Origin: a candidate division FCPU426 bacterium
GTDB taxonomy: Bacteria > Oederibacteriota > Muellerivitia > Muellerivitales > Muellerivitaceae
Assembly (NCBI GenBank): GCA_003152075.1
Contig: PLZG01000111.1
Coordinates: 22,677-86,676, forward strand
Reading direction: 5' to 3'
Length of the DNA: 64,000 bases
Position numbers and translations under genes: made by a program. Below, piece by piece: positions 25,705 through 58,679 of this stretch. The number at the start of each line of letters is the position of its first letter. Within the stretch, counting starts at the first letter, position 1. Under the pieces are notes generated by a model. The model had not been told where the DNA came from. It saw nothing but the letters and a program-made list of their open reading frames with translations, and made no database searches.

Positions 25705-25746
25705 TTTTTCTCCCCGGGATATTCTCAACCTTTCCCGAAGTCATTC

Positions 25747-25863: not shown

Positions 25864-26050
25864 CAGGCTTCCCTGGCGAAGCGTAAAATCGCCAAAGATA
25901 CATCTGACACGAAAACACTAAGGCGCTAAGAAAGGCACCCAAAATCTTGATCTCCTTTTCTTGGTCTTTAAACACACTTAGTTTTTCTTCGTGTCTTTGT
26001 GCCTTCATGTCGGCATTGGGTTTTCTTTTTTTAGTTTCTGGAAGGTTCGC

Positions 26051-32198: not shown

Positions 32199-32235
32199 CA
32201 GATATAAGATAATCCCGGAAAGTGGGAAATCGCCC

Positions 32236-37100: not shown

Positions 37101-37973
37101 TGCCCCGACCAATTGGCGATGGACTGCAACAGCAACCTTTATATTTCCGATTATTGCAGTCGAAAAATAACCAAAATTGACTCCGTAGGAATCATCACCA
37201 CCGTGGCGGGGACGGGAGCCGCCGGTTATATGGGCGACGGCGGTCCCGCCACCTCCGCCACTTTCGGCGAAATCCGGGGGGTGGCGGTGGACCAGGCGGG
37301 GAACCTTTATGTCTCGGATGTCACCTATAACGTCGTGAGAAAAATCACCTCTTGCGTCGCTGAGGGTCCTTGCCCCCTGTGCGCCATTACCCCGGTCTGT
37401 CCCCTTATCATTCCCACCGCCACCCCGACTCCAACCATGACCCCAAGCTCAACCCCAACAGCCTCCCCTACCAATACCCCGACTTCCACGGTCACTGAAA
37501 CCCCGACACCACCCAATCCCCCACCTACAGCCACTTCGACCCAACCCGTGGATGTTCCCATCCCAACGGTGACCGAAACTTTCACCCCCACTAACTCGTG
37601 CACCTCCACGCCAACTTCCACGCCTACCCTGAGCCCCACCATGACTCCCAGTTCCACCGCCTCCAACACGGGGACCCCGACCTATACCCTAACTCCCACC
37701 TGCGTGATTAATATTTGGCCCAACCCTTACCGGCCTAGCAAAGCGATAAATGGGACGCTCAAGATCAGCTGTCTCCCTCTGAACGCGAAGGTTTCCATTT
37801 ATACCTTGTCGGGGGAATGGGTGAATAGCGTCTCGGAAGCGGGGGGGATGGCCAGTTGGAACGGCCAGAATAGCCGGCTCGTTAGCGTGTCCTCGGGCAT
37901 TTACTACTACGTTGTCCTTACTGTGGACGGCCAAATATTGGAGAAAGGGAAATTCCTTATTGTGGATAATTAA
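34191..37973 (+). CDS. Secreted mosaic protein: metzincin (reprolysin/M12B-like) protease, Ig-like domain, concanavalin/LamG-like domain, PT linker, NHL-repeat beta-propeller, PT linker, CTD
   Basis: [11 protein letters not shown] zinc motif. Repeats ITTxAGxGxxGxxGDGGPAxxA...GNLYxxD (NHL-type). C-terminus [26 protein letters not shown]. Confidence 0.85.
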
Positions 37974-41000: not shown

Positions 41001-41482
41001 TTAATTTCAGCGGATTGCCCTACTCGGGAGCCACGGTGACCATCATGACCGCGACATCAACACCCACCTCCACCCCAACCCCTTCGCCAACCTTCACCAT
41101 CACCCCGACCAGTACCTTTACGGTAACATTCACACCTTCAAATACGTCAACGGCTACGCCGTCGAGTACTCCTTCGGGCATTCCCACTTTCACACAAACT
41201 CCTTCTTCCGCCCCCGTTCTTTATCCCAACCCAGCTCCAGGTGGCAGTTCCACCAACCTGCAATTAACCCTGGGCGCTTCCTCCGACGTCCACTACCGGA
41301 TATTCACCCTTTCCTTCCGGAAGGTTCAGGATCAAACCATTCCCAATGTTCCGGCAGGACTGAACAATTTGAAGATTCCCCTAGTGGATAAGAACGGGGT
41401 GGCCTTGGCCAATGGGCTTTATTACCTGGTTATTAACTACGATGGGAAACGAGTGGTTTTGAAGCTTCTGGTGATTGGATAA
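38087..41482 (+). CDS. Secreted protein: PQQ-like/BamB-like beta-propeller, ~280-aa T/P/N/S linker, Ig-like module, PT linker, CTD
   Basis: LTTYHNNQARDGWNQNETTLT..VDGQVYAQPLY..HNVVYVVTEHDSAYAFDA. C-terminus LYPNPAPGG...NGLYYLVINYDGKRVVLKLLVIG. Confidence 0.8.
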   Translation: MIFLSILTDRNRVDARDSHEGVLKRFLPIQSKIFKNLLAFSWLILGLLFFSGSTLWAQTSLTTYHNNQARDGWNQNETTLTTANVNQANFGKLFSNAVDGQVYAQPLYMPNISIGGGTHNVVYVVTEHDSAYAFDADNAGVTYWHDTFIGGVTMVISTAADAGGCPQVTPEIGITDTPVIDPATGTMYFVAMTKIVSGGVTTYLQQLHAVDISTGNEKFNGPTTIQAVDPKNAAVTFIARAHKERCALTLSNGVVYTAFTSHCDFNTWGAYHGWVIGYNASNISQQMSVYNTTPTGTNPEGSLWESGDGPSVDAAGNLYFLTSNGNFDQTAPVTDYGQCFLKLNTTGNAVTALDYFSPMNEATMSAADDDVGSAGQCLLPASWGSAAHPNLILGADKPGDLYVVDTANMGHFSATANNVPQTVAAIGGRGYTTPAIYSNGVTKYVYWGMTASPLKAFTFANGLYVTPFSSQSTATFGGQGCVPSVSSNGNSNGIVWGLANGTPVILHAYDATNLGTELYNSGQNSARDSAVGAVVKFAPPSIINGKVYVPTANSLVVYGLLVTATSTPTGSFTATPTVTPTRTNTATSTPSRTATNTPTLTRTNSPTNSPTATASRTPTASPTQTGTSTPPNSPTRTPTNSPTNTMANTATNTPLNTATRTPTPTATNSPSNSATATPTITPSNTATRTATNSSTPSPSNSPTLTPTSTISNTATNTPLITNTATNTPTVSPTSTPTNSPTRTATTTPTNSFTLTWTNTLTLTATKTATQTPTVTATNSPSNTTVITNTASNTPTNTPTLTPTGTATLSLTNTFTRTATNSPTHTLTNTATNSPVNTATFTPTSVTVSVVSGPGVPSNGTKLPGASNVLVDQVVLSNPSSSTVTLTNLTITNTGTGTGSTGITNITLSNNGTSLGTIPFATNTAAFTGLNLVIGAGASVTLQANSNFSVGAPSGTTYTFQISGMAGTNGQTVNFSGLPYSGATVTIMTATSTPTSTPTPSPTFTITPTSTFTVTFTPSNTSTATPSSTPSGIPTFTQTPSSAPVLYPNPAPGGSSTNLQLTLGASSDVHYRIFTLSFRKVQDQTIPNVPAGLNNLKIPLVDKNGVALANGLYYLVINYDGKRVVLKLLVIG

Positions 41483-41752: not shown

Positions 41753-42667
41753 TTGTTCGTTCGTTTGCTGGGCACCGCCGCGGGCGGCGGTTTTCCCCAG
41801 TGGAACTGTAACTGCGCCCTCTGCCGGGAAGTCCGTTCGGGGCGTTCCGGAACGTCCCCCCGCTCCCAATCCTCCGCCACGGTCAGCGCCGATGGCAAAT
41901 CCTGGTTCCTCTTAAACGCCTCTCCCGATATCCGCCACCAGATCGAGGCCTTTCCCAAGCTTTTGTCCCCACGCGATCATGTCCGAGGCACCTCCATTGA
42001 GGCCGTTCTCCTTACCAATGCCGACCTGGACCATGTGTTGGGAATTTTCATCCTCCGCGAAGGCGGGGTTCTTCCCCTGCACGCTCCCCCCGGAGTACGA
42101 AAAGCCCTAGACGAAGGCTTAAGAATCTCCGAAGTTTTGAAAGCCTATGGCGGGGTCTCTTGGACAGAACCGCCTTCCACCCTGAAAGCCCTTTTGAAAA
42201 GCAACGGTTCCGAAAGCGGGCTGCTTTATGAAGCCTTCGAAGTTCCGGGCAAACTTCCCCGCTATGCTGGCTCCAAATTCGAGAAAGGAAGCGCTGTGGG
42301 CTATCGCTTGGTGGACCCCCGCACCAAGGGCCGCCTGGTTTTCCTACCGGACACAGCAGGCCTCATTGGCCCGGTTTCGGAAAAGCTCAAGGATTGCGAT
42401 GCCCTCCTATTAGACGGCACCTTTTGGGATGAGGATGAAATGAAAAAGACCGGCACCGGAACCCTCACCGCTTCCCAGATGGCCCATATGCCCTTGGGCG
42501 GGCCCCAAGGCAGCCTCGAAATTCTCCGTAACCTTCCCATCAAGCGTAAAATCTACTTGCATATCAACAACACCAACCCGATCTTGAACGAATCTTCCCC
42601 CCAGCACCGTCAAGTCAAAGAAGCCGGGGTGGAAGTGGGAACAGATGGGATGGAGTTTGAAATTTAG
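41753..42667 (+). CDS. pqqB: PqqB (metallo-beta-lactamase fold)
   Basis: LLGTAAGGGFPQWNCNCALC N-terminus, typical of PqqB. TTG start. Confidence 0.9.
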   Translation: MFVRLLGTAAGGGFPQWNCNCALCREVRSGRSGTSPRSQSSATVSADGKSWFLLNASPDIRHQIEAFPKLLSPRDHVRGTSIEAVLLTNADLDHVLGIFILREGGVLPLHAPPGVRKALDEGLRISEVLKAYGGVSWTEPPSTLKALLKSNGSESGLLYEAFEVPGKLPRYAGSKFEKGSAVGYRLVDPRTKGRLVFLPDTAGLIGPVSEKLKDCDALLLDGTFWDEDEMKKTGTGTLTASQMAHMPLGGPQGSLEILRNLPIKRKIYLHINNTNPILNESSPQHRQVKEAGVEVGTDGMEFEI

Positions 42668-42720
42668 ACTCATGGATATATGGATATATTGAACAAATCA
42701 TTTTTAAAAAGGTTTCGCAA

Positions 42721-43530
42721 ATGAAAATCAAATATCTATTTGCTCTAATCTTAACATTACACTCTCTTCTGGCAATGGCGGCTCCTGAACCAACTCCAAC
42801 TCGTGAGATTTATTCGACACAAAAACCGAGCAGAACAACAACAAAGAGAGCCGTACCTATACTTGCGGTCAAATCGAATCAAAGACCTCATGTATTTCAC
42901 GCCGACAAGGGAGTTAGGGAAATACCTATCGATGAATTAGATAGTTATCAAAAGGAGTCCGTTGAGAAAGCTAAAAAGATTCTGCCGCCCGATGAGACAA
43001 CTATAACTAACACCCGGGTTTACCAAACTCCTTTGGGTTTGTGGATAACAATTGTGGCGCCTGAGAAATCCGGGGCATATTTTGAGTCGTATGAACTGTT
43101 ACGCAAAAAGGATGCTGAACCCATATTATTTTACAAACACGAACGCGCCATCGACATTTTAACCAGCCATCACGGGAGATTGATAGTGGTCAACGACTCC
43201 CCTGCCTCCAAATCTTCCGAGATTCTCGTCGTGGATCTAAAAATAAAAAACAATTGGCAAATCGACCATCAGTTAATAGCCCGGTATCACAAAGAAGTTG
43301 ATGCCGAAGGATATCTTGTCCTTCCTGTTCCAGTTGAATTTTCACCCGATGATCAAAAAGTGTTAATTCGAATGCGGCTTGGATACAACTTTAGTCATCG
43401 GCCAGAGGAAACGGAACTTTTTCAAAAAAAATATGACAACTGGTCCTATGTCGTTGACTCGAAATCAGGAAAAATTCTGAACGAATACAAAGCAAGTTCT
43501 GTCCCTGAAAAATGGTGGTTAAATAATTGA
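42721..43530 (+). CDS. AT-rich orphan secreted protein inserted between pqqB and pqqC
   Basis: 269 aa. Signal peptide MKIKYLFALILTLHSLLAMA. The first 60 nt are about 33% GC by count. No family recognised. Confidence 0.6.
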   Translation: MKIKYLFALILTLHSLLAMAAPEPTPTREIYSTQKPSRTTTKRAVPILAVKSNQRPHVFHADKGVREIPIDELDSYQKESVEKAKKILPPDETTITNTRVYQTPLGLWITIVAPEKSGAYFESYELLRKKDAEPILFYKHERAIDILTSHHGRLIVVNDSPASKSSEILVVDLKIKNNWQIDHQLIARYHKEVDAEGYLVLPVPVEFSPDDQKVLIRMRLGYNFSHRPEETELFQKKYDNWSYVVDSKSGKILNEYKASSVPEKWWLNN

Positions 43531-43555
43531 CGATTTCGTCTTCTGTGGAGAATTA

Positions 43556-44260
43556 ATGGAACAACCCCTGGACCGGGCGGCGCTCGTGGAGCGTCTGCGC
43601 GCCGTCGGCATGACCCACTACCACGATAAGCATCCCTTCCACCGCAACATGAACGAGGGAAAGCTCACCCCCGACCAGGTTCGGGGTTGGGTTATAAACC
43701 GCTTTTATTACCAACGCAATATTCCTATTAAGGACGCGGCACTCATTTCCAACTGCCCCATCCGGGAAGTCCGCCGCGTCTGGTTGCACCGCATCAGCGA
43801 CCACGATGGCCTGAAGGAAGGCGAAGGCGGAATCGAGGCCTGGCTCAAGCTGGGCGAGGCCTCCGGCATTAGCCGGGAGGACCTGCTTTCGGGCAAGGGG
43901 CTCCTGCCCAAGGCCAAGGCCGCGGTTGATTCCTACGTGAATTTTGTCCGTACCAAATCCTGGCCCGTGGGCATCGCTTCCTCCCTCACCGAGCTCTTCG
44001 CACCCGACCTGATGAAGGAAAGAATCTTGGCGTTTGAGAAGTACTACACTTGGGTGAAACCCTGGGGTTTGGAATATTTCCGTTCCCGTGTCAGTCAGGC
44101 CAAGACGGATTCTGACCAGGGCCTGGACCTAGTCTTCACCTATTGCAACACCCATGAACTGCAGGAAGAGGCCGTGAAGGCCCTGTCCTTCAAGTGTGGC
44201 CTGTTATGGGACCTGCTGGATGCCATGGCTGAGGCCTATGGCGGGGGGAAAGCTGAATAA
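43556..44260 (+). CDS. pqqC: PqqC (PQQ synthase)
   Basis: HYHDKHPFHRNMNEGKLTPDQVRGWVINRFYYQ is the classic PqqC N-terminus. Confidence 0.9.
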   Translation: MEQPLDRAALVERLRAVGMTHYHDKHPFHRNMNEGKLTPDQVRGWVINRFYYQRNIPIKDAALISNCPIREVRRVWLHRISDHDGLKEGEGGIEAWLKLGEASGISREDLLSGKGLLPKAKAAVDSYVNFVRTKSWPVGIASSLTELFAPDLMKERILAFEKYYTWVKPWGLEYFRSRVSQAKTDSDQGLDLVFTYCNTHELQEEAVKALSFKCGLLWDLLDAMAEAYGGGKAE

Positions 44261-44282
44261 TCAGTTCCTCTAAAATTGCGGA

Positions 44283-44380
44283 CTCCCTTCTCCCTTGAGG
44301 GGAGAAGGATAGGATGAGGGTGGTTTGAACAACTACAAGCACCCCTCACCCTACCCTCTCCCCCAAGGGGCGAGGGGAAA
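44283..44380. repeat. REP-like compound palindrome (two inverted G/C-rich units) between pqqC and pqqDE
   Basis: CCCTTCTCCCTTGAGGGGAGAAGGATAGGATGAGGGTGG and CACCCCTCACCCTACCCTCTCCCCCAAGGGGCGAGGGG are near reverse complements. Confidence 0.7.
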
Positions 44381-44402
44381 ATGATTTATTAAGGTGCCTT
44401 TC

Positions 44403-45827
44403 ATGAATGAACGTCTCGCTCCCAGGCTGGCGTCCCGGGCCAAACTTCGCAAGGACCCGGCCACCGGCGGATGGGTTCTCCTCTTCCCCGAAGGCCTGAT
44501 GAAGCTCAATGAAAGCGCGGCCGCTATCCTGCGGCTTTGTAACGGCCAAATTCCCCTGCCGTGGATTTTGGAAAAACTTTCCCAGAATTTCAAAACCCCC
44601 GTGGTCAATATAGAAAAAGATGTCCGGGAAGCCCTGGACCAGTTTCTTTCCAAGGGCTTGGTGGAGTGGGTCGAACCTTCACATGGTTCCCTGGATAACA
44701 ACTGGCCACAGGAAAGCGGGTCTCTCCCCTCCCCCTCTTCAAGCCCCCAAACTTACCGGCCCCTGGGACTTTTGGCGGAACTGACCTATCGCTGTCCCCT
44801 CCATTGCCCCTATTGCTCCAACCCCGTCTGGGAACAGGCCTCTCCCCAAGGCTCTGAGCTGACCACGGAAAAATGGAAAGAAGTCCTGAGCCAGGCCCGT
44901 GACCTGGGGGTACTACACGCGCTTTTTTCCGGCGGCGAGCCGCTCCAAAGGATGGACCTGGAAGAACTGGTAGCCCACGCCCATAAACTTGGCCTTTACA
45001 CTAACCTCATTACCAGCGGCCTGGGTCTTTCAGCCAAAAGGGCGGCTGCCCTGAAGGAAGCCGGCCTGGACAGCGTCCAGCTGAGTTTCCAGGCGGATGA
45101 GGAAAAGCTAGCCGATGAGATCGCCGGGACTAAAGCCCACGCGAAGAAGCTTGAGGTGGCCGGGATTATCCGGTCTCTGGAATTGCCGCTCACGGTGAAT
45201 ATCGTCTTGCACCGCTCCAACATCGACAGGCTGGAAACCCTTATCGCCCTGACAGAGGAATTGGGCGCCCACCGGCTGGAGCTGGCCAATACCCAATATT
45301 ACGGCTGGGCTTTCCGCAACCGCGCCAAGCTATTGCCCACCCGGGAACAGGTGATGGCCGCATCCAAAATCGCAGATAAAGCTAAGGCGCGCCTCAAGGG
45401 AAAAATGGAAATTCTTTATGTCATCCCTGATTATTTCTACGATAGGCCCAAACCCTGCATGAACGGTTGGGGACGGCGCTATATCACGGTGAACCCCTCC
45501 GGCCAGGTCCTGCCCTGCCCCACCGCCTACTCCATCAAGTCATTGAAGCTTGAGAACGTGAAAGACAAAGCCCTGGACTGGATTTGGAATGATTCGGATT
45601 CCTTCAACCGCTTCCGGGGTACCGAATGGATGCCCGAGCCCTGCGCCTCTTGTGATTTGAAGGAAGTGGACTTCGGGGGATGCCGTTGCCAGGCTGAACT
45701 GCTAGCCGGGGACCCGACAGTCACCGACCCCGCCTGCGGCTTGTCGCCCTTTAGATCCAAGCTGGAGGAAGCCCTTGCGGAAGTACTGGCTGTGCCGGGT
45801 ACCTGGGACTACCGCCAGAATCCTTAA
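44403..45827 (+). CDS. pqqE: PqqD-PqqE fusion (peptide chaperone plus radical-SAM/SPASM enzyme)
   Basis: N-terminus ..VLLFPEGLMKLNESAAAILRLCNG..DVREALDQFL (PqqD), then a ~30-aa S/P linker, then TYRCPLHCPYCSNP (CxxxCxxC) and a C-terminal SPASM Cys cluster. The ATG at 44403 has AAGGTG upstream; an alternative GTG lies at 44394. Confidence 0.85.
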   Translation: MNERLAPRLASRAKLRKDPATGGWVLLFPEGLMKLNESAAAILRLCNGQIPLPWILEKLSQNFKTPVVNIEKDVREALDQFLSKGLVEWVEPSHGSLDNNWPQESGSLPSPSSSPQTYRPLGLLAELTYRCPLHCPYCSNPVWEQASPQGSELTTEKWKEVLSQARDLGVLHALFSGGEPLQRMDLEELVAHAHKLGLYTNLITSGLGLSAKRAAALKEAGLDSVQLSFQADEEKLADEIAGTKAHAKKLEVAGIIRSLELPLTVNIVLHRSNIDRLETLIALTEELGAHRLELANTQYYGWAFRNRAKLLPTREQVMAASKIADKAKARLKGKMEILYVIPDYFYDRPKPCMNGWGRRYITVNPSGQVLPCPTAYSIKSLKLENVKDKALDWIWNDSDSFNRFRGTEWMPEPCASCDLKEVDFGGCRCQAELLAGDPTVTDPACGLSPFRSKLEEALAEVLAVPGTWDYRQNP

Positions 45828-47251: not shown

Positions 47252-50200
47252 TTATTGGATCACCATCAGCTGAAGAGTTTTCCTTCCCATCCATTTTCCA
47301 TTGGCGTCAATCCATTTCACGGTCGCCAGGTAGGTGCCGCTGGCAATCCCCTGCGCTTTCCAGGTGGCCTGGCTAGTCCCCTTCCCGCCATTGACCACTT
47401 TCACCAGTTCCCCGCCGAGAGTGTAAATCCTGGCCGTAAGAGTCGCGCCCAGGGATGAATCAACCTTGAAAGTGGTTTGACTGGAGGTTCCCGACAAGTG
47501 GTTAGGTTGGGCCCAAACAACACCGGTAGCCGCTCCCCCAGTAACAGTGATATCCTTCACAATGGTTCCGTTTCCTCCTTTCCCGTCCTCCCATCGCGAT
47601 TCCACCCAATATTTACCCTGGGTAACTAAAATTCCGCTGTCCGACCTGCCGTCCCAAGTCAAAATCACGGAAGCGGCTCCCGCCGCCGTCACCTGGATTT
47701 GAACCGAAGAGGCGCTGCCCCCCGGAGGACCGGAGGCGCTCAACACGGAGGAACTCAAAACTACGCCCGTCATCTCAGAAGAGGAGGAAGCCGCGACAAG
47801 CGAATATAAGTGACGAACTATTTCCCCGGCCTCATTGTAAATGTTGACCGTCACCCGTGCCAACGAACGGCTCACCATGACCTGTTGGGTCGTGCTGGTG
47901 ACCGCCCCCACCGAATCCACATTTTCCACTTTGATGTGATAAACCCCGTTGAGAACGGGGTCGCCGTTTCCGTTGGTACCATCCCAAGTGACAATCTCCT
48001 GTCCCAGGGCGTAAACCCCCACCAGGCTCCCCGAACCCTGAAGGGCCGAGATAACACTGCCACCGTTTAAGGAAAAAGAGTTGATGGGCTGGGTGGAATA
48101 CCGGACCCATAACTGTTTCACCAATTCCCCAGCCTCGTTATAAACCCCAATTTTGACCGTAACCTGCCCAGCTGGCGTGACTATGGGTGTGGGCGTAAAA
48201 CTAACGGTCCAGGTGACGGTAAAGCTGGGGGTCCAGGTCCAAGTCGGGGTCGAGGTTGAAGTCTTCGTGGAAGTGAGGGTTGGGATGAAAGTAAACGTGG
48301 ATGTTGAAGTCGGAGTATTCGTGGAAGTAGAAGTATTAGTGGGCGTAGGGCTGTTGGTGGAAGTGGGTGTCGCTGTCGCCGTCCAAGTGGCGGTTGGGGT
48401 ATAAGTCTGGGTAAAGGTTAGGGTGAAGCTGTTGGTAGCCGACGGGGTAAAACTGTTGGTGTTGGTTGAAGTTGGTGTGGCCGTATTGGTAGAAGTAAAA
48501 GAATTCGTAAAGGTAGCCGTAAAGCTGTTGGTGAGCGAATTTGTGGGGGTGGAGCTATTCGTCGAAGTAGGAGTGAAGGTCCTGGTAAATGTTGGAGTGG
48601 AGGTGTTCGTTGGCGTGCTGGTAAAGGTATTTGTTGAAGTATAAGTGGGGGTGAAACTATTGGTCGCGGTGAAAGTATTCGTCGGCGGGGAAGTTCCCGT
48701 GAAGGTCATGGTAGGTGTTGGGGTAATGGTGGGTGTGAAGCTATTGGTTGAGGTAAAGGTACTGGTAGGCGTGTTGGTTGAGGTGCTGGTGGAAGTGCTC
48801 GTCGAGGTATAGGTGGACGTGCTGGTGGAGGTGTTGGTCGATGTGAATGTTGGAGTAAAACTACTGGTAGGCGTATTGGTTGAGGTGGGCGTTGAAGTGG
48901 CTGTGGCCGTAAAGGTCTTGGTGGAGGTGTTCGTAAAGGTTGAGGTAAAGCTGTTAGTAGAAGTCGAGGTCGAGGTGGAAGTACTGGTGCTGGTGAAGCT
49001 GGAAGTCGAGGTAGCCGTGGCGGTCGACGTTGAAGTGTTGGTTGAGGTACTAGTCGAGGTCGAAGTAGGCGTACTAGTCTTCGTGGAAGTCGAGGTAGCC
49101 GTGGCTGTCGAAGTAGAGGTACTGGTGGATGTGCTCGTTGAGGTAGAAGTTGAGGTGGATGTGTTGGTGGAAGTGCTCGTCGAGGTTCGAGTGGGGGTAA
49201 AAGTAGAAGTAAAGGTCCGGGTGGCGGTGGAAGTGGACGTCGACGTACTGGTGGAGGTGCTCGTTGAAGTACTCGTTGAGCTAAAGGTCTGGGTAGCGGT
49301 AAAAGTGGGAGTGGCCGTGGGCGGACCCAGCGTGGTAGATTTAGTCGGCGACGGCGTTTTGGTGGGCGTGCACCCTCCCCCCGTGTTGGTGACCGCGTTG
49401 GTGACTTGTCCCCCCGTGAGCACGTCCGTTTCCCAGGCTTGGTTCACGATGTCCTGACATCCCTTCTTGACGGTCACGTCGAAGGTCAGCGTGCCCCCCG
49501 TTCCCGCCGGCACCGTTCCCACATCCCAGCAGATGGTGTCACCCGGACTTGTACCCGTCCAGGTGATGGCGCCCAAGGCCGGGTTTGCGGCGGCCGTGGT
49601 AGAAATAAATTTCGTGTCCGTGGGGATGGAATCGCACACCTGCATGCCGTCGATGGCGACCGTTCCCGTATTGGCGTAATTAATGGTGTAGGTCAGCGTG
49701 TCGCCGGCCATGACTGGTCCTGGCGGATTGACCGACTTGTTGATTTTCAACTGGGGGGTTATGCAGGTCTGCCAGGCTACGTTGTCCAGGTATCCCAGGC
49801 TGTAATGGCCGTCGCCGTCGCAGTCATGGGCGGTAACCACCAGCGTCACCTGCTGCCCCGCGTAAGCGCATAAGTTGACGCTTTGTTCCGTCCAGGGGAT
49901 ATATCCCCAATCCGGAAGGGGGCTGTCGTTGGTGATGGGGCAACCCGAAAAAGTTCCGGCGCCTTGGGTGCCGGTGGGTACCACCAAACTTGTGGAATAG
50001 CCCCAACCGTAACGAATGCTGGAAATCGTTACGCCGCCCGCCCCGCCTGTTCCACCGCCGATGATCACGTCGGCTTCCACGTAGGAGTCCTTGAAGGTAT
50101 CCCCTGTGACATAATGCTTGTCCTCCAAAACTGCGGCGATCCAGTAGGAGAGGCAGCATTGGCCGTTGGAGGGTACGGTGTCCGATTGCCATACTTGGGC

Positions 50201-50632
50201 CCAATCCGCGAAGGCGGCGTCGCCCATGGAGGAGAAAAGCTGGATCGCGTAGGTGCCCGACTGGACCATGGACAATCCCCCCGGGGTTAGGGTGCCGAGC
50301 GAATCAGGAGACGGGCCCATTCCCGTATTGACTACCTTGGAGGTGGGATTACCGCAGACCAGACTGCCCGCGTTTCCCGTGGCAGTGGTCCAGCCAGTCA
50401 GGTTTCCGGTCTCGAATCCTGGATTGACCCAGGCTCGGGCCGGCGTCATTCCCACGGAGATAAATAATCCCAACGCCAAGGCAAAGATATCCTTAAAAGC
50501 CTTTTTCCGGGAAGGACACGTGGGTGCGAAGCCTCGAAAGAAGCTTAATGGAACCGGTTTCATTTGTATCGCGCCGAGTTCAACCGTCGCAAGATTCATT
50601 TTCATTGGTCTTCTCTGGGGTGGAGCCATCAA
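47252..50632 (-). CDS. Secreted protein: jelly-roll-like N-domain, DUF11 repeat, ~390-aa Ser/Thr linker, three FlgD-Ig/CTD-like domains
   Basis: [17 protein letters not shown]11 block [23 protein letters not shown]. (TS)n tract. C-terminus ..[27 protein letters not shown]. The true start is uncertain (50632, 50605 or 50563). Confidence 0.8.
48170..49370. repeat. Ser/Thr-coding low-complexity DNA (TSTSTS / TxT units)
   Basis: Runs of AGTCGAGGT / GGTGGAAGT-type units. This produces the spurious V/E-rich plus-strand ORFs 48153..49457. Confidence 0.85.
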
Positions 50633-50659
50633 GCCCCGCCGGATCTAAAAAGTCGCGCG

Positions 50660-50816
50660 TCCCGCCCGGCGGGAAAATTAACGCTTCTGTGCCGAGACCT
50701 CAAGTCGAGGCACACTCTTTGAATGTGCTAACGCAAAAAGCGTTAGCGCACTTATGCCGAATCCACAAGATGAGGCATAAGCCTTAGCGTGTTGATGCCC
50801 AAACAGGCATCAACGC
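50660..50816 (-). other. Array of five consecutive stem-loops in the GH28-to-DUF11 gene spacer
   Basis: TCCCG/CGGGA; TGTGCC..GAC/GTC..GGCACA; GCTAACGC-A5-GCGTTAGC; CTTATGCC-N15-GGCATAAG; GTTGATGCC-N6-GGCATCAAC. The last one overlaps the GH28 stop. Confidence 0.6.
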
Positions 50817-53533
50817 AGGATTAGTAATTTCTCAACGTAGTGCTTGCCGTCGATGCGCACATCCACGTAATAAACCCCGTTGGCGAGGGCCGCTCCCGTT
50901 TGATCGGTCAAGGGAATGGTGAAATCCACCGTGCCCGGGCCCTTTTGGCCCAGGGTTTCCTTCCAGATTTTGCGCATGGACACGGTAAAGAGTTCCACAT
51001 CGATATAGGAACTGCTCGTCAAACCAGTAATTTGGATATGAGCGGGGGTCAACCCCGTCGAGGGGTTCGGATAAATGACCACTCTAATTCCCGAAACCGG
51101 AGTAAAGGTCGCGGTGGAGGTAACTGTTGCGGTGGGCGTGTTAGTGGAAGTATGCGTTGGCGGAACCGAAGTAAAGGTCGAAGTAAACGAGGGAGTCGCG
51201 GTTCTCGTAAACGTTAGCGTAGGAGGCACCGGAGTTTTGGTGGAAGTGGGCGGAACAGGTGTGAAAGTGGCCGTGGGAGGCACGGGGCTATTGGTTCGTG
51301 TCGGTGTCGGAGTACTGGTGGCGGTGGGCGGGACTGGTGTTTTGGTTTTGGTAGGCGGGATCGCCGTGAATGTCGAAGTTGGAGGCAAAGCTGTATTGGT
51401 GGGAGTTGCCGTTGGTGGAACGGCGGTCGTAGTAAAGGTGGGCGGCACCACCGTAAAGGTATTAGTGGGAGGGACTGGAGTATTGGTATTGCTAGGCAAG
51501 GGAGTATTCGTGGCGGTCGGGGGCACCGGGGTATTCGTCATCGTGGGCGGCAGGGGCGTAAGCGTGGATGTCGGAGGGACCGCCGTGAAGCTGTTGGTAG
51601 GTGAAGGAGTCAAACTGGGCGGCACTGATGTGTTAGTTGGCGTAGCCGAAGGCGTAGCGGTGAGGGACTCCGTAGGCGTCATCGAAGCCGTGGGCGGTAC
51701 AGGTGTGTTCGTATTGGTCGGCGGCACGGGTGTATTGGTCCTCGTCGGTGAAGCCGTAAAGGTCGAAGTAGGAGGAATGGGTGTATTGGTAGGGGTTGAC
51801 GTGGGTGGAACGGACGTAGGGGTAAAGGATGGAGTTGCCGTTTTCGTGAAGGTTGAAGTCGGCGGAACCGGCGTATTTGTCATCGTCGGGGGTACCGGTG
51901 TGTTGGTGGAGGTCTTGGTCGGCGTGGAGGATAGAGTAGGTGTTTGAGTGAAAGTCGAAGTCGGTGGCACAGGCGTATTGGTATTGGTGGGAGGAACCGG
52001 TGTATTGGTTTTAGTGGCCGTAGCCGTAAAGGTCATCGTCGGGGGCACAGACGTATTCGTCGTGGAGAAGGTAAAAGTGAGTGTGGGCGGCACGGGAGTA
52101 TTGGTTTTGGTGAAAGTCATCGTATTCGTGGACGTTGGTGGAATGGGTGTATTGGTCTTGGTAGAGGTAAACGTCGGTGTATTCGTGGGTGGAACCGGCG
52201 TGAATGTGAAAGTCCGCGTGGGAGTGTTGGTCGCGGGCATCGGAGTAAAGGTACGCGTAAAAGTCGGCGTGGGATTCGACCCGCAAGACGGATAGGTAAT
52301 AGTGGCGTCGAAAGAACCAATATCCGTGGGCGGCGCTTGGCCGTCTACGCGGACGTTGCACATGACAGTGACACCCCTGGCGTGGTGGAACTCGAAGTTG
52401 ACCCCGCTGGGGCCGGTCACGGTAACCGCATCCAGCAAAACGTTGGAGACGGGGGCTTCCGGCACGGCCCACATGATACCCGGGCTCTTGGCCCCGCTGG
52501 CCGTCGAGGCCGTAATGTTGCGAAGGGTGATGTTGCTCCAAAAGGGCGTGGTGCTGGTAACAGTGGCCGATGTATCCGATGTGGGCGGGAGGGAGGAAGG
52601 ATTGGGATACCAGCTGGTGAGGAAGAAGGGATAACTCAGGATGCCCGTCATAGTGATATTGGAATAGGTGAGGTTGTCGATGATTCCCCCGCGGTCACGG
52701 CCGGTTTTCCAGCGGATGCCATACTGGGTCCCGGTGAAGGTGCAGCTATCCACCAGCAGGTTGCTCACTCCGCCCTGGGTATAACCGCCGATGGAGAGTC
52801 CGTGGCCTGTCCCGAAGGCGCAATTGCGGATGGTGATTCCCTGGCAATTGTCCGAGCTGCCGCCAATCTGGATCACGTCGTCCCCATCGCTAATATAACA
52901 ATTCTCAATCAGGTAATTTTTTCCCCGCAGGTCGATGCCATCCGTGTTGGGGGAAGGCCAGGCGGCGGTGATGCTCACCCCCCCGATGTAAACACCGTTC
53001 ATGGACCCTAAGGTCTGGACATGGAACTTAGGCGAGTCCTTCACCGTGATCCCCATCAGCGTCACATTCGAGGACTTGGTGATTTCGATCATGGCTGGCG
53101 GCCGGTTGTCCGTACCGCCGTTGTTGAAGGCCGTCCACCAGGCCGCGCCCTGGCCGTCCATGGTTCCGGAGCCGTTGATGGTGAGGTTACTCAAACCCGT
53201 GCCGTAAACGAAATCCGTGTTTTGGGGGAAGGTCCCCATGGCCGTCATCCGCAGGATGGAACCGGCGGCTAGCTGGAAGGTCATGTTGCTTTTCAGGGTA
53301 ACGGGGCCGCTGAGGAAGGTTCCGGAGGGAACCACTACCGTTCCGCCGCTTCCCACCGCGTTGATGGCGGCTTGAATGGCGGAAGCGTTATCGGCACTGC
53401 CCGTTGAGGCGTTATAAGGGGCGGAGGTAATCGTGAGGGTTTGGGCCGATGCGGAAAGAGCGGAAAGGAAAAGAGCGGCGCAGAACAACCGAAAAGACCA
53501 CGCATGGCCGAAAACGTTTTGATAGGTTCTCAT
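50810..53533 (-). CDS. GH28 polygalacturonase-like glycoside hydrolase with a ~400-aa (N)TPVPPT-repeat linker and CTD
   Basis: NTDGID, DGDDVIQIG, GHGLSIGG and IRWKT catalytic signatures. C-terminus IYPNPSTGL...NGVYYVDVRIDGKHYVEKLLILR. Confidence 0.9.
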   Translation of the reverse strand: MRTYQNVFGHAWSFRLFCAALFLSALSASAQTLTITSAPYNASTGSADNASAIQAAINAVGSGGTVVVPSGTFLSGPVTLKSNMTFQLAAGSILRMTAMGTFPQNTDFVYGTGLSNLTINGSGTMDGQGAAWWTAFNNGGTDNRPPAMIEITKSSNVTLMGITVKDSPKFHVQTLGSMNGVYIGGVSITAAWPSPNTDGIDLRGKNYLIENCYISDGDDVIQIGGSSDNCQGITIRNCAFGTGHGLSIGGYTQGGVSNLLVDSCTFTGTQYGIRWKTGRDRGGIIDNLTYSNITMTGILSYPFFLTSWYPNPSSLPPTSDTSATVTSTTPFWSNITLRNITASTASGAKSPGIMWAVPEAPVSNVLLDAVTVTGPSGVNFEFHHARGVTVMCNVRVDGQAPPTDIGSFDATITYPSCGSNPTPTFTRTFTPMPATNTPTRTFTFTPVPPTNTPTFTSTKTNTPIPPTSTNTMTFTKTNTPVPPTLTFTFSTTNTSVPPTMTFTATATKTNTPVPPTNTNTPVPPTSTFTQTPTLSSTPTKTSTNTPVPPTMTNTPVPPTSTFTKTATPSFTPTSVPPTSTPTNTPIPPTSTFTASPTRTNTPVPPTNTNTPVPPTASMTPTESLTATPSATPTNTSVPPSLTPSPTNSFTAVPPTSTLTPLPPTMTNTPVPPTATNTPLPSNTNTPVPPTNTFTVVPPTFTTTAVPPTATPTNTALPPTSTFTAIPPTKTKTPVPPTATSTPTPTRTNSPVPPTATFTPVPPTSTKTPVPPTLTFTRTATPSFTSTFTSVPPTHTSTNTPTATVTSTATFTPVSGIRVVIYPNPSTGLTPAHIQITGLTSSSYIDVELFTVSMRKIWKETLGQKGPGTVDFTIPLTDQTGAALANGVYYVDVRIDGKHYVEKLLILR
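51080..52270. repeat. Degenerate tandem repeats encoding TPVPPT(N/S)T units
   Basis: Dozens of PVPPT occurrences in the translation. These produce the spurious G/V-rich plus-strand ORFs 51075..52295. Confidence 0.85.
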
Positions 53534-53668
53534 TATTCCACCTCGGTTTTTAAGTCCCGTTCTTCAAAACGAGACAAACTTCTATGTCCCTTAGAGACAT
53601 GACCGGGCGGCTTTATTCCCTTGGTAGGTTTTTTTTATAGTTTTTAGTTTATCGATAAAAACGAAGGT

Positions 53669-55009
53669 TTACTTGGACATATTTGAAGCTTTATATTTTT
53701 CCAACCACCCCCGGAGGGGGCTATTATCCGGTTTGAGTTTCAGGACATTCTCGAAACAACGCACCGCGTATTCCTTCTTCCCCAGCTGGTAATAAAGCCT
53801 CCCCATGGCGGACCAAAGCAGGTCGTTTCGGGGTGTTTCCTTCAAGGCTTCGGCGTAGATCTTCAAGGCCTCGTTCCACTTCCCCTCCTTTTCCAGGCCT
53901 TGTCCCTCGGCCAGGGGATCGGTGGAAATTTTGAAGTGCACTTCCACGTCCTTCGGGTTTGAGACAGGTTCTGGCACCGGCTGGAGCACGGTGACAGGCA
54001 CCTGGACCTTCACCACTTCCTTGGGCAGTTCGAACTGATAGGACAGGCTGACGCGGTGGGACACGCCCAAGCTGCCGAAGGGCAGGTAGGCGTAATCCAG
54101 GGACAAGGACTCAATCTTTACGCCGGCTCCGGCGGTGAAATTGGTGAACCCACTGACCTGGTTGTCGGTAAAGGGCAGTTGGTATCCGGCCCTCAAGGAC
54201 CAGCGCTTGTCCAATACCAGTTCCCCTCCCGCCTGCGCCGCTCCCAAGTTGGTGGAAAACCAGGAACCCGAAAGAGCTAAAAGAAACCGATCGCGGGAAC
54301 TCAAATCGAAAGTGGCCGAGGCCCCTCCCTGGAATTGTCCAGTCAGGGAATGGCCTGCGACGGCAGTGCCCAGGTTGGAATAGGCCGCCCCCAGGCGGAA
54401 ATTCTTCACGGGCGACCACAAAACCCCCAGGTCGCCCGCCAGACTGGTATAGAGGTCGTTGACGACTTTTTGCTGAACCGCCCTGACCGCTACCCCTGCG
54501 GAAAATCCCTCAGTCCACTCCATTCCCCAGGCCGCCGTGAGGCCGATGTCCGTATCATTAAAAGCCCCCTGGGAAACACCCGAGCTGTCCCGCAAATCCA
54601 GGGCCCCCCAGTTGATGTAACTCAAGGCCAAGCCCAGTCCCCCCTTGTTTCCGGCGGGAAAGGCCGCCGACAGGGTTTCCTGGAAGGTTCCGGCCAGGTA
54701 GCTGTTGTGGTGCAGGGAAACCTCCGGACTTCGCATTCCGGACAGGCCCGCGCTGTTGTAAAAGAGGGCCGAGCCGTCATCCGCCACGGCCACGAAAGCC
54801 GACCCCATCCCCAGGTCCCGAGCCGAACCTTGCAGGTTCAACAATGGCACGGCGCCACTCGCCGCGCTTGTTGCCGTCTGCGCAACAGCAACACCCAAAA
54901 CAAAAAAGGCCAACACAAAGCCACTAAGACACAAAGTTTTAAATATAAAAAATATCTTTACCTTTTTCTTAGAGACTTCGTGGCTTTGTGTTGGCCTTTG
55001 GTTTTTCAT
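53669..55009 (-). CDS. PorV/PorQ-like outer-membrane beta-barrel fused to a C-terminal TPR module
   Basis: Signal peptide. [29 protein letters not shown] (PorV/PorQ/UPF0164-type N-motif). Alternating beta-strand pattern ending ..SLSYQF. Then TPR ..[25 protein letters not shown]. Its ATG overlaps the upstream stop (ATGA). Confidence 0.6.
54905..54999. repeat. Perfect 20-bp inverted repeat inside codons 4-35 of the PorV-like gene
   Basis: AAAGGCCAACACAAAGCCAC (54905..54924) and GTGGCTTTGTGTTGGCCTTT (54980..54999). Confidence 0.9.
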
Positions 55010-57294
55010 CTCTTGACTGCCAAAACTTTAGGGTCGAACCAGTCTTCCTTCCCCGAGTCATACTTGAGGTCCACCTGGTAGAAATAATGCCCCGGTGCGA
55101 AAGAAGTAATGTCCATCTGGCTTTCCTGGCCGCCCGTGGACTTCACTTCCTGTAAGCTGGCCGCCAGCTGGGCCGAGGCGTTCCAAACCTTAATGAAAGC
55201 TGTCCCGTTTTCGGCCATGGTGTAGACGAAACGCACCGTTGGCCCGCTGGAAGGGTTGGAATAAACGTAAGGAACCCCGTTGGGCACGGGCGGGGTGGGG
55301 CTGGGCGTAGCCGTGTAAGTGGGGGTGGAAGACGGTGTAAAAACTGGCGTAAACGTGGAGGTTGGGGTTGAGGTAGGAATAAGTGTGGGCGAATTAGTTG
55401 GGCTAAGAGTTGGACTGTTGGTCGGTGTTTTCGTCGGCGTATTGGAAGGCGTTGTAGTAGCTGTGCTGGTCGAAGTCTTAGTAGGTGTACTGGTTGGAGT
55501 CGGGGTCGAAGTCCTAGTTGGTGTTGAAGTCGCGCTATTCGTGGGTGTCCTTGTGGTGGAATTGGTTGGGGTAAGAGTTGGACTGTTGGTCGGTGTGTTA
55601 GAAGGCGTTTTTGTAAGCGTGCTGGTCGAAGTCGGTGTTGGACTGTTAGTACTGGTTGGCGCCAGGGTAAGAGTTGGGGTGGGTGTCGGAGTGGGTGGCT
55701 GGGGTATGACTTGTAGCGCGTTGACCTTGGGGCTATCCGCGCTCCCCGGGCTGAAGGAAACCGTGATCAGTCCTCCGGAAGGGGAAATATTATTGAAGAT
55801 CTTGTCGTCCGCTATCCCGGCGCCGCCCGCGTCGGCAAAGGGGTCGAAGTTGGAAAGAACGGGCGAACCGTTCACCGCCACGTTGAAGACCCTTTGGCCC
55901 GCGCCGGTGAAATCTGTTTCCGCGAACTTCAAGGTCAACTGGTAGGAACCCGTCTGCACCGGGAAGGAATAGCTGAAATTATTGGAACTGAAAAGGTTTC
56001 CGTACCGCTCGGTTTGGTAAAGGGCGGCGTCCGAGGTGCTGGTAATGGGGACGGCAGCCGTTACGGCGTAGTTGTATCCTCCCAAGTACTGGGTGTCGGC
56101 GGCCCAAACATTACTCGCCAAATCGGTGTATGCGGGGCCCCCCGCCACAATACGCCAAACGGTGGCCGCTGCGGCCGCGGGTGTGGGGGTGGCGGTGGCA
56201 AGGTTGCCGCAAGGACCCGTCCCGGAAGCCGCCATGGTGGGAACCAGGGCCGGGCTGTCGGGACTGTAGGCGTAAAAGGTCGCGGGATTGAAGGCTGTCC
56301 CGAAAGTATCCTGGGAGCCGGTAGCGGTCGGGTCGAAAAGATTGTTCACAGCCGTCAAGCTGGGTTGATAGGTTGGCGTGGGTGTGCCGATCGCGAAGGG
56401 GTTGATAGCGCTGACCCCGAAATTATTGTTTTCCACCACCATCTGACCCGCCATGGTATCCCAGGCGCAGTATTGGGCCACGTTGGTGTAATAGTTGTTG
56501 AACAGGTGCGCCAGGCCGAACCGGAACCGGGGGGTGCTGATCCAAACATGGTCGAACCAATTGTGATGGTAGGTGACCTTTAAATAACCGATCTCAGCCG
56601 TGTAGGAATCGCTTCTTCCCACCAGGGACGCTTTGTTGTGGTCGTGGAAATGGCACCAGGAAACGGTGACGTAATTAGCCTGGTCGGTGATGTCGCAAAG
56701 GCCGTCCTCGGCGTGGGAAAGATCGCAATGGTCCACCCAGACATGGTGGGCCGAATGCCAGATGGTGATGGCGTCCCAATTGCAGCACTTGCCCAGGGGA
56801 TCGCCGGGAACGTAAATCTGGCCCAGGACCAGGTTTTGAATAATGACGTTGGAGGTCCCATCCACCACCACCGGGCCGTTCACGATTCCTGACCCGCATC
56901 CCAAGCCCAGTAGCGTCGTGTTTGAGGGAACTTTTTCCGTGTTGCCGTAAGGGGTCAGAACAATCAACCCCTGGACGCAGATGGTTAAAGGTGTGGCTTG
57001 GCCCAAGGCCGTTTCCAACTGGGCCTGGGTGGAAACAGTGACAGCCGTCCCTCCCGCTCCCCCGACCGTGCCGCCCGCGATGGACATGCCGATGGAGTTA
57101 TCCCCATCCACCGCCGCGAAGCCGACACAACCTGGCGCCGCCCCATGAAGGGGGGAGGAGAGGAATAGAAAAAGGAACCCAAACGCCGGAATAAAAGAAT
57201 TCCAGCGTTTAAAAATTTGATCTTGTTTTTGGAAATAACACGGCGGCATGAACCCCTCCCCGAAAATCATAGCATCCCCGGAAGGTTTGTTCAT
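55006..57294 (-). CDS. PL1 pectate lyase, malectin-like carbohydrate-binding domain, PT linker, CTD
   Basis: [38 protein letters not shown] (Pec_lyase_C). [26 protein letters not shown] (malectin). C-terminus [25 protein letters not shown]. Confidence 0.9.
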
Positions 57295-57320
57295 ATTTCG
57301 ACAGCAAGAACTGGATTTCC

Positions 57321-57941
57321 CTATTCAATACTGACGGTTTTGGACATCTCGGTAGAGCCGGATTTGACCTGAATACGGTAGTTCCCGGCAGGCGCTTTGG
57401 AACCGTTGTCCAAAAGGCCGTCCCAATGGAGGGACCACTTCCCGGGCTTGAGGCTGCCCGTGAAAAGTGCCCGGATGGTCTGGTTATGGGGATCGAGGAT
57501 GGAGACCTGTACGGAAGAAGATTTCTCCAGTTCCACCACCACGCTTAAGCGATTACCCTCGGCGGTGGAAACCAGGCGTTCGGGAATCGTGATAGGCGGC
57601 GGAAGCAGTTTCACCTTGGGCCGGGAAACGGTTTGGGGAATCATAAACGGCGCCAGGGAAACAACGGCCGGCTTGGACCAGAACCACCAGGCCGTGGTTC
57701 CCAACCCGGCAAAAACCGCGGTCAAGAGGACGGCTTTAATCCAGGTCAGGCTATGGGGGACCGAGGAAGCGGAGGGGGAAAGGGTTTGGGGGTCGGGCAG
57801 GCCTAGGGCAAGGTATTCACCACGCAGCTTCTCGCCGAAACCCAAGGCGTCGCCGCTGGATTTTTCCAACAGTTCTTCCAGGGCTTGTGATTCGCCTTCG
57901 GTCAGGTCACGTTTGAAAAATTCCTCGACGAGTCGGTTCAT
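57321..57941 (-). CDS. Putative single-pass anti-sigma factor with a FlgD-Ig/CTD-like ectodomain
   Basis: 4-nt overlap with the ECF sigma gene. TM segment [23 protein letters not shown]-terminus [41 protein letters not shown]. Confidence 0.6.
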
Positions 57942-58519
57942 TGCTTTCCTTCTTTTAGTATCCGTTCCACTTCCGCCTTGAGTGCGGCGGTGCAGCGCGC
58001 CAGCCGGGACATCACCGTCCCCAGTGGGATCTTCAATTTCCGGCTGACCTCTATATAACTGGCTTCGTCCTTGGCCCTTAGTTCGAGGATTTGGCGGCAG
58101 GGATCACCGATCCCCTTCAAGGCCTTCTTCAGGATTTGAAGCCTGTCTTTTTTCTCCCTTGACCGGTCCGCCTGGTCGGCGGCTTCCAATGACCGGGACC
58201 GGAGGAACCCTTCCAGGTCTTCCTCCGCCTGCGCGGTCACCTGGCTTCGGCTTCGGTAGTGCCGGTAGCACTTATGGATGCAAATCTGCGTCAGCCAGGT
58301 ATCCAGGGCGGACCGGAACTCGAACTGCGGGAGCTTCTGGAAAGCCACCATGAACGCTTCCTGGAGGATATCTTCGATCTCCGGGTCATTGGCGCCCATG
58401 AAGTAGACACAAAAGCTGTGGAGCTTTTGCCGGTAAGCCTGGTAGAACTCGGTCCTTGCCCCTTCGTCGCCCTTTAGGACCCTTTCCACCAATCTCCGCT
58501 CGTCCAATGGAACTCCCAA
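57938..58519 (-). CDS. ECF (group 4) sigma-70 family factor
   Basis: Region 2 ..LHSFCVYFMG..DILQEAFMVAF..WLTQICIHKC. Region 4 SYIEVSRKLKIPLGTVMSRLARC. TTG start with GGAGG upstream. Confidence 0.85.
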   Translation of the reverse strand: MGVPLDERRLVERVLKGDEGARTEFYQAYRQKLHSFCVYFMGANDPEIEDILQEAFMVAFQKLPQFEFRSALDTWLTQICIHKCYRHYRSRSQVTAQAEEDLEGFLRSRSLEAADQADRSREKKDRLQILKKALKGIGDPCRQILELRAKDEASYIEVSRKLKIPLGTVMSRLARCTAALKAEVERILKEGKQ

Positions 58520-58679
58520 TGACTTAGAGCCTCCAGCGGGGAAAATATTCCCTTAAAAGGCCCAGAATTTAATAAACCTGGTGGAATTATAGATGAAACC
58601 GCTTACAAAGCCGAAGTCTTTGGTGGAAAGAGCCGCTAGGACCTTGCCAATTCTTCTTTGAATAATAAACCCATTGAAC

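Follow-up and report, generated by a model that had tools for sequence, protein, structure and literature searches.

A 64 kb window of DNA (the whole stretch analysed in this study) from an uncultured wood/soil bacterium of candidate division FCPU426 contains six co-directional minus-strand open reading frames (ORFs) within positions 47252-58519, headed by a gene for an extracytoplasmic function (ECF) sigma factor and including one for a PorV-like outer-membrane barrel. Domains were assigned using Pfam and NCBIfam models. An initial annotation of the locus had described an apparent six-gene operon forming a candidate self-contained secretion and sensing module; the six genes were found in one direction at exactly the coordinates that it gave, and the two 4-nt (ATGA) overlaps that it reported, between the sigma and anti-sigma genes and between the lyase and barrel genes, were both present. 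The remaining junctions were gaps of 26 nt (anti-sigma to lyase), 135 nt (barrel to polygalacturonase), and 177 nt (polygalacturonase to the last gene). The features of the locus are as follows.

58523-58551, minus strand: ECF-type promoter of the sigma operon, GGAATA-N18-CTAAG
57938-58519, minus strand: ECF sigma factor, 193 aa as an ORF, with Sigma70_r2 and r4
57321-57941, minus strand: putative anti-sigma factor, 206 aa, with a FlgD_ig domain; role assigned from position and topology
55006-57294, minus strand: partner protein, with a signal peptide, a polysaccharide lyase family 1 (PL1) pectate lyase domain, a malectin domain, a proline/threonine- and threonine/serine-rich (PT/TS) linker, and a private C-terminal domain (CTD)
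55009-55302, minus strand: cassette-specific CTD of the partner, residues 665-762
53669-55009, minus strand: PorV/PorQ-family barrel with a predicted periplasmic tetratricopeptide repeat (TPR) tail, from NF033709 and an AlphaFold2 model
53590-53619, minus strand: second ECF-type promoter, GGAATA-N19-CTAAG, 57 nt before the start of the polygalacturonase gene
50810-53533, minus strand: glycoside hydrolase family 28 (GH28) polygalacturonase, with a PT-rich linker of about 400 aa and a general-type CTD
47252-50632, minus strand: DUF11/TS-repeat/FlgD-Ig protein; membership of the unit uncertain

Signal-peptide-like N-termini were present on all four non-regulatory proteins. The PL1 protein matched Pectate_lyase_4 (E 7e-36) and Malectin (E 1e-28), and the GH28 protein matched Glyco_hydro_28 (E 3e-47). 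The TS-rich protein gave a DUF11 score of 44 bits against a cut-off of 24.6 when its N-terminal part was scanned alone, and a FlgD_ig match at E 5e-13. Nearly all of the domains initially assigned were recovered in this way. The exceptions were the FlgD_ig domain of the GH28 protein (21.3 against a threshold of 27), the CTDs, which were sub-threshold for TIGR04183 (17.6 bits for PL1 and 19.2 bits for GH28 against a cut-off of 23), and the last of the three FlgD-Ig domains attributed to the TS-rich protein, where the first two were clearly related (E 1e-9) and the third was weakly similar.

Four of these genes, encoding the ECF sigma factor, the FlgD-Ig anti-sigma factor, the partner, and the TPR-barrel, recur together. 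Neighbourhoods were judged wherever flanking DNA was available, and the quartet was found, besides the window, in no fewer than 11 FCPU426-type loci (L001, L003, L005, L006, L007, L085, L086, L088, L090, and L091, plus L092). The expectation that synteny would extend beyond this genome was borne out, the arrangement being present in every related locus examined. The contig of L085 also carries the beginning of a second cassette; a second one was not found in the 64 kb window. An overlap of 4 nt or 1 nt is usual between the partner and barrel genes. L001 has its partner gene after the barrel gene, and L092, the most distant locus (28% identity in the barrel), reads barrel, sigma, anti-sigma, and then a 356-aa protein. 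Retention of the four-gene association despite this rearrangement is good evidence of functional coupling. Orthologues of the sigma factor in the cassette loci were matched at E 1e-64 to 1e-94, and matches to the sigma profile hidden Markov model (HMM) were limited to the cassette loci and a variant locus, L030. About 75 PorV homologues from other phyla had no ECF sigma gene within 10 kb, and none was found near three FCPU426 barrels that lack the tail (L009, L019, and L071). Locus L030, from a palsa FCPU426 metagenome-assembled genome (MAG), carries at 9980-15235 a TPR-barrel, a second, tail-less PorV-like barrel, and a sigma factor of the same family, with a 351-aa FlgD_ig/CHU_C protein in place of the anti-sigma factor of about 210 aa.

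The genes downstream of the quartet vary. They encode GH28 in the window, a rhamnogalacturonan lyase with GH43/GH53 in L085, GH62 and GH30 with carbohydrate-binding module (CBM) family 3 in L003, L086, and L091, and a pectate-lyase-fold protein in L090; L088 has none. The TS-rich DUF11 gene had no conserved counterpart in the related loci. A conserved unit of four genes, not six, is thus well supported by these gene neighbourhoods. In the public gene calls for the source scaffold (L093), the GH28 gene was missed altogether and the TS-rich gene was mostly missed, and spurious antisense ORFs were placed in the PT/TS linkers, for example at 51075-51947 and 48813-49457 on the plus strand. Since gene calling fails on genes with such linkers, counts of carbohydrate-active enzymes (CAZymes) for FCPU426 are probably underestimates. 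GC skew was strongly positive (+0.22 to +0.32) at 48000-52000, over the TS/PT-repeat coding regions, which stems from the threonine/serine/proline codon bias of the linkers and not from a replication feature.

Aligning the DNA upstream of the sigma genes yielded the motif GGAATA-N17-19-CTAAG/T. It was found upstream of the sigma gene in 12 of 12 cases, namely the window and all 11 of the related sigma genes examined, where it lay at 30-70 nt; its background in unrelated loci was 3.1 per 100 kb, counting both strands. The 64 kb window contained two matches against 0.44 expected by chance, and both were located in predicted gaps on the correct strand, one before the sigma gene and the other before the GH28 gene. 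These two copies indicate at least two transcription units, sigma-antisigma-partner-barrel and GH28. The single six-gene operon initially proposed did not stand, since GH28 has its own ECF-type promoter and the TS-rich gene has none and is not conserved. No ECF-type motif was detected in the 177-nt gap upstream of the TS-rich gene (50633-50809). The same gap holds three related small hairpins with 13- and 11-nt arms and 5-nt loops.

The motif also preceded the first gene after the barrel in L005, L006, L007, L085, and L090, and with one mismatch it preceded the CAZyme genes in L001, L086, and L091. Both units of the window are predicted from these motifs to share the same sigma dependence, with GH28 as a target of the sigma factor. 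The two features expected of an ECF system, a coupled gene and an autoregulated promoter, were found as the 4-nt overlap with the putative anti-sigma gene and as the conserved motif. A generic sigma-70 promoter and terminator scan of the locus gave no more matches than the shuffled expectation. A distance of 3 nt separates the end of the sigma promoter's -10 element from the first TTG of the ORF, so the start codon is likely to lie downstream. The true start is probably the TTG at 58507, 12 nt further on, which is preceded by GGGAG, as in the orthologues. It is highly probable that the cassettes represent a conserved sigma-controlled unit with this regulon logic.

The sigma factor scored 80.5 bits with TIGR02937 (cut-off 42.9) and contains regions 2 and 4 only, as in ECF (group 4) proteins; it reached no equivalog model. 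In the anti-sigma protein, FlgD_ig was matched at residues 126-196 (E 6.5e-13, Pfam), and a hydrophobic segment at 65-88, with its maximum at 65-83, accounts for one transmembrane segment. The AlphaFold2 model, with a predicted local distance difference test score (pLDDT) of about 90 for residues 1-45 and 131-205, showed, with confidence, three helices at the N-terminus (3-45) and a beta-sandwich (131-205). The protein is modelled as a cytoplasmic helical N-domain, a single transmembrane helix, and a periplasmic FlgD-Ig domain. This architecture was shared by 41 full-length homologues, in which 25 of the 38 invariant columns fall in the periplasmic part. Directly before the Ig domain, at residues 112-121, lies the conserved motif LPPPxxIPxRL, where L112, P115, and P116 are invariant and P120 is nearly so; we infer that this proline-rich stretch is of the type of extended peptide bound by TPR domains.

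The sandwich was closest to FlgD in both Foldseek and PDB profile searches, with weaker Foldseek matches to three entries that contain a type IX secretion system (T9SS) CTD, namely PorZ, a NucA substrate complex, and PorU. The idea that the sensor domain has the fold of the cargo CTDs was upheld only in part: the Ig-like sandwich and the weak structural matches to T9SS CTD entries agree with it, whereas no significant sequence similarity was found between the anti-sigma domain and the CTDs of the PL1 or GH28 proteins. A weak match was obtained to one domain of the TS-rich protein (E 0.005).

The barrel protein matched the PorV/PorQ family model NF033709 with 138.1 bits against a cut-off of 90 (residues 53-326), and scored below the equivalog cut-offs for PorV (NF033710, 62.4 against 250), PorQ (NF033711, 95.6 against 220), and PorV2 (46.1 against 325). 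By these scores it is a member of the PorV/PorQ family and not an orthologue of PorV or PorQ proper. No PorP/SprF family model appeared among its matches, and that to the treponemal family UPF0164 was weak and sub-threshold (19.9 bits against 21.4). PDB profile searches returned PorV (6h3i_F, E 2.7e-11) together with canonical peptide-binding TPRs. The AlphaFold2 model (pLDDT 85.7, from a 65-sequence alignment) consists of 14 strands (96-325), a disordered proline-rich linker (326-364), and five TPR helices (365-441). Its best Foldseek matches were 8gl6_F (E 5e-14) and 6h3i_F (E 3e-11), the PorV chains of Flavobacterium johnsoniae SprA-PorV complexes, at a TM-score of 0.63-0.65 relative to the target, followed by FadL and TodX. 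Profile, PDB, and fold comparisons all agree that the barrel is PorV-like, as first proposed, and not a member of an unrelated outer-membrane protein family. The even number of strands places both barrel termini, and hence the TPR, in the periplasm.

These structural matches also bear on the suggestion that the barrel is a FadL-like uptake channel for products of the surface partner, which the TPR would hand to periplasmic components. FadL and TodX come directly after PorV in the ranking. However, FadL-type channels carry hydrophobic molecules, not charged oligogalacturonides, the closest structure is PorV, which to our knowledge is not a nutrient channel, and most partners are non-catalytic, so that such a function is highly improbable.

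The fusion of barrel and TPR was found in about 90 homologues, all from uncultured bacteria, the closest genomic relatives being candidate division FCPU426 MAGs (47% identity in L005 and 39% in L007). PorV-like barrels of other FCPU426 genomes carry a fused fn3 or peptidoglycan-binding OmpA domain (L019, 3189-11803; L071, 8271-11263 and 12098-18211, coordinates including the large tailed proteins); each is preceded by a large protein ending in a FlgD_ig, Por_Secre_tail, or CHU_C-type tail, and the genes often overlap. Pairing of a CTD protein with a barrel looks like a general theme of FCPU426.

In every cassette, the partner ends in a stretch matching the final 100 or so residues of the PL1 protein (phmmer E 1e-27 to 1e-42), with the tail consensus [28 protein letters not shown]...[24 protein letters not shown]. 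With 57-70% identity among most cassettes, this CTD is better conserved than any other module in 7 of the 10 loci compared; the corresponding identities are 43-68% for the sigma factor, 46-64% for the barrel, and 31-61% for the TPR. An exhaustive search of 1.84 billion representatives returned 325 relatives at E<=1e-3, of which the top 15 (E<=2.4e-19) were followed by a drop in score; the match was always C-terminal, and the heads varied. A word-indexed protein database yielded nine short fragments only. Heads on the tight CTD class were PL1 with malectin, a PL9-like beta-helix, an L-type lectin, PA14 with CBM9 (the commonest), DUF11/LamG-like, DUF7948 with SBBP, and some without an assigned family. 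Most are binding modules without a catalytic domain, and such lectin- or CBM-type partners suggest a role in sensing or anchoring and not in the export of enzymes. PF18962 was reached by close homologues of the partner CTD (P0182, 28.1; P0184, 29.2; P0185, 27.2; threshold 27). The partner CTD itself showed no significant similarity to the CTDs of the GH28, TS-rich, or other proteins in the window, and the GH28 CTD shared 42% identity with the CTD of an unrelated protein (38087-41482).

On the basis of the CTD classes and the binding heads, the likely client of the barrel is one cognate CTD protein and not the whole locus. The initial annotation had placed the barrel as a shuttle for all of the cargo encoded around it, which conflicts with the restriction of the private CTD subclass to the gene that is translationally coupled to the barrel. 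A version of that idea would make the barrel a dedicated PorV-type shuttle for the CTD cargo of the locus, with the Ig domain of the anti-sigma factor monitoring shuttle occupancy or secretion load, for example by competing with cargo CTDs, and would match cargo and shuttle synthesis. It agrees with the PorV/PorQ membership of the barrel and its closest structural match to PorV, with the FlgD_ig sandwich common to the anti-sigma factor and the TS-rich domains, to which the sub-threshold score of the GH28 CTD for the same family may be added, and with the dedicated shuttles that F. johnsoniae encodes beside their cargo (PMC12618676). We consider it unlikely nonetheless, for the cassette-specific CTD occurs only on the coupled partner, that of GH28 falls with the CTD of a protein encoded outside the locus, other cassettes have no conserved TS-rich protein, most partners lack a catalytic domain, and the anti-sigma domain is without significant similarity to the PL1 and GH28 CTDs.

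Four more secreted proteins in the window, encoded outside the cassette, have CTD-like tails (10531-11841, 12072-14867, 34191-37973, and 38087-41482). Two of these four, a DUF7948 plus SBBP protein and a reprolysin plus NHL protein, have tails 53% identical to each other, and the window holds at least three CTD subclasses. This number of CTD-tailed proteins suggests that CTD-dependent export is heavily used. Neither the 64 kb window nor the flanks annotated for the FCPU426-type loci contained a SprA/Sov, PorK/L/M/N, PorU, or PorZ gene. A PorV-like barrel is not a translocon, and the genes present do not support the claim of self-contained secretion. Near the tail-less FCPU426 PorV paralogues (L009, L019, and L071), no SprA, PorU, or GldKLMN was detected; the neighbours were fn3/FlgD_ig giants, an eCIS_core protein, and housekeeping genes. 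The organism is diderm: the window contains a GT9 heptosyltransferase gene and related loci contain TonB-dependent receptors. The FCPU426 phylum is essentially uncharacterised in the literature, and no paper addressing T9SS core genes in this lineage was found.

The locus is best read as a surface-signalling relay resembling a polysaccharide locus, not as a self-contained secretion system. We put at roughly 50% the probability that the quartet is a sensory and regulatory cassette, the FCPU426 functional counterpart of an ECF-controlled polysaccharide utilisation locus. Most likely, the cassette switches on adjacent genes for plant-cell-wall enzymes, here for pectin. In such a relay, the partner would be displayed on the cell surface via its CTD docked on the cognate barrel, and binding of pectin to the malectin/PL1 head, or the products of the lyase, would alter the barrel-partner complex. 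The change would pass through the TPR tail of the barrel to the periplasmic module of the anti-sigma factor (LPPPxxIPxRL plus FlgD-Ig). The anti-sigma factor would then be inactivated and the sigma factor freed to transcribe its own operon, as positive feedback, and GH28, while GH28 and the other CTD proteins would be exported by a general CTD-dependent route encoded elsewhere. Cassettes of the pectin, xylan, and other types share the same anti-sigma ectodomain, which is therefore unlikely to be what reads the variable ligand; specificity would reside in the head. The physical relay from partner through barrel and TPR to the anti-sigma factor is a tentative proposal, to which we give somewhat under an even chance.

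Several observations weigh against this relay. TPR-tailed PorV-like barrels without a nearby ECF sigma gene were found in Goldbacteria, Gemmatimonadetes, and Elusimicrobia (L018, L021, L028, L029, L056, and L057), which implies that the tail need not signal and may instead be a structural adaptor like PorE. No clear co-variation of identity between the TPR and the anti-sigma ectodomain was seen across 10 cassettes, a sample with too few points. The consensus of the -35 and -10 elements is identical in all cassettes, so the motif cannot assign a paralogous sigma factor to a gene. No known anti-sigma family matched the N-domain of the 206-aa protein (Pfam, NCBIfam, and PDB profile searches, the last returning FlgD only), and this protein is a candidate anti-sigma factor from its position and topology. 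In addition, the partner in the window is a predicted lyase, probably active, and not a pure binding protein.

The sigma-less barrels favour a different arrangement, in which the partner and barrel form a sigma-regulated surface-anchoring pair in the style of SprB-SprF or PG1035-PorP-PorE, the TPR is a PorE-like link to periplasmic machinery or peptidoglycan, and the anti-sigma factor senses a signal of its own, such as envelope stress or an oligosaccharide. The pairs in L019 and L071, where barrels fused to OmpA or fn3 accompany CTD proteins without a sigma gene, fit this arrangement, as does the binding of PorP to PorE, which contains TPR and OmpA domains (PMC9143113, PMC12204202). However, the TPR-barrel family of the cassettes was never seen without the sigma/anti-sigma pair, even after the permutation in L092, and the constancy of the anti-sigma ectodomain across cassettes for different polysaccharides speaks against direct ligand sensing. 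We regard anchoring of this kind as rather doubtful.

Returning to the signalling relay, a more specific formulation is that FCPU426 has recruited a CTD/PorV-type pair, a combination known elsewhere only from type IX secretion, into a new class of trans-envelope signalling device, with an exchangeable lectin, CBM, or lyase head, a constant CTD, a 14-strand barrel, and a TPR gating the FlgD-Ig anti-sigma factor and the ECF sigma factor. This possibility is advanced with some reserve, as one that could well be wrong. If true, the polysaccharide utilisation loci of an uncultured phylum would be defined by a counterpart of SusC/FecA signalling that does not depend on TonB, and the roles of the PorV family would extend beyond shuttling and anchoring to signal transduction. 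It would also link to the PorA-PorV-SigP pathway of Porphyromonas, which is unexplained between the surface protein and the inner membrane. The cassettes would offer a first regulatory and sensory logic for the degradation of plant polymers in FCPU426, a lineage of wood, peat, and soil, and with the promoter motif its regulons can be predicted from the DNA. Sensor construction could profit from the modular layout, in which glycan-binding heads are exchanged on a constant relay.

Elsewhere in the window, a pqq-like cluster on the plus strand (41753-45827) comprises a Lactamase_B_2 (PqqB-like) gene, a 269-aa gene without an assigned family, a TENA/PQQC-family gene, and a fused PqqD, radical SAM, and SPASM gene (PqqD-E-like). 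At 20668-29423, kdpABC on the minus strand adjoins kdpD/kdpE on the plus strand. A second KdpD-like histidine kinase (DUF4118, GAF, HisKA, and HATPase_c) is encoded with a response regulator at 40-2162, and no KdpD sensor domain was found in this kinase. Two tandem paralogous GAF-GGDEF diguanylate cyclase genes occupy 31101-33345.

A literature search covering FCPU426 or Goldbacteria with T9SS, PorV with anti-sigma factors, and PorV with polysaccharide utilisation loci found no account of such a cassette, in agreement with the initial annotation, which knew of no described system of this combination. The cassette itself is apparently without prior description, and its parts are akin to PorA-PorV-SigP signalling, CTD/PorP-SprF pairs, and ECF-controlled loci. 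A precedent for the proposed relay exists in Porphyromonas gingivalis, where the small lectin-like surface protein PorA has a CTD, binds PorV, and passes a surface signal on to the ECF sigma factor SigP through an unidentified mediator (PMC7712824). The PorA-PorV-PorXY-SigP pathway resembles the cassette in its lectin-like head, T9SS-type CTD, contact with PorV, and autoregulated ECF sigma factor. It differs in using a PorY/PorX two-component relay, in having no dedicated anti-sigma factor, and in a PorV without a TPR tail; its genes are dispersed and its regulon is the T9SS, whereas here a compact cassette has CAZyme targets.

Docking of a CTD protein on a barrel is known in Bacteroidota from PorZ-PorQ, PorU-PorV, SprB-SprF, and PG1035-PorP. 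As in SprB-SprF and PG1035-PorP-PorE, where the barrel anchors or targets the CTD protein (PMC9143113, PMC12618676), the cassette encodes a CTD protein and its own barrel side by side, and where PorP associates with the TPR-containing periplasmic protein PorE (PMC9143113), the cassette has a TPR fused to the barrel. Unlike the PorP/SprF pairs, the cassette has a barrel of the PorV/PorQ family, includes a sigma/anti-sigma pair, and belongs to a lineage outside Bacteroidota. Its CTD, near threshold for PF18962/TIGR04183, lies nearer to type A than to the type B of SprB-like cargo. The Treponema pallidum proteins TP0548, TP0859, and TP0865 (PMC8407342) resemble the barrel in being 14-strand FadL-type proteins with a C-terminal TPR helical extension that is presumptively periplasmic; these FadL-like proteins have no CTD partner and no sigma/anti-sigma context and are proposed importers of hydrophobic nutrients.

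In regulatory logic, the cassette is comparable to the ECF/anti-sigma/SusC loci of Bacteroides (PMC2709373) and to FecA-FecR-FecI, where a periplasmic extension of the barrel acts on a single-pass anti-sigma factor and this on an ECF sigma factor. The likeness, on the proposed relay, extends to induction of the adjacent glycan-degradation genes by the released sigma factor and to the existence of many paralogous cassettes with differing specificities. The cassette lacks Plug/TonB_dep_Rec, a FecR domain, and an N-terminal signalling domain, and is not a FecIRA-type member; no SusC- or SusD-like genes were found in the window cassette or the related cassettes. Compared with the SusC and Fec systems, its barrel is of another superfamily (14-strand FadL/PorV), and ligand recognition would lie on a separate CTD protein. 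The sigma-I/RsgI systems of Clostridium thermocellum (PMC6852018, PMC10328401) likewise use paralogous pairs to sense polysaccharides and control cell-wall-degrading enzymes. RsgI sensor modules are CBM3, PA14, or GH-type, the PA14 head being common to RsgI and the cassettes. In RsgI the sensor is on the anti-sigma factor, the host is monoderm, and the sigma factor is sigma-I; in the cassette the head would sit on a separate protein docked at the outer membrane of a diderm, and the sigma factor is of the ECF type. By profile comparison, the sigma factor is a generic ECF protein and the anti-sigma factor is in no described anti-sigma family. Because their defining parts were tested for and were absent, the cassette is not of the FecIRA, SusC, or RsgI type, and its likeness to these systems is one of logic only.

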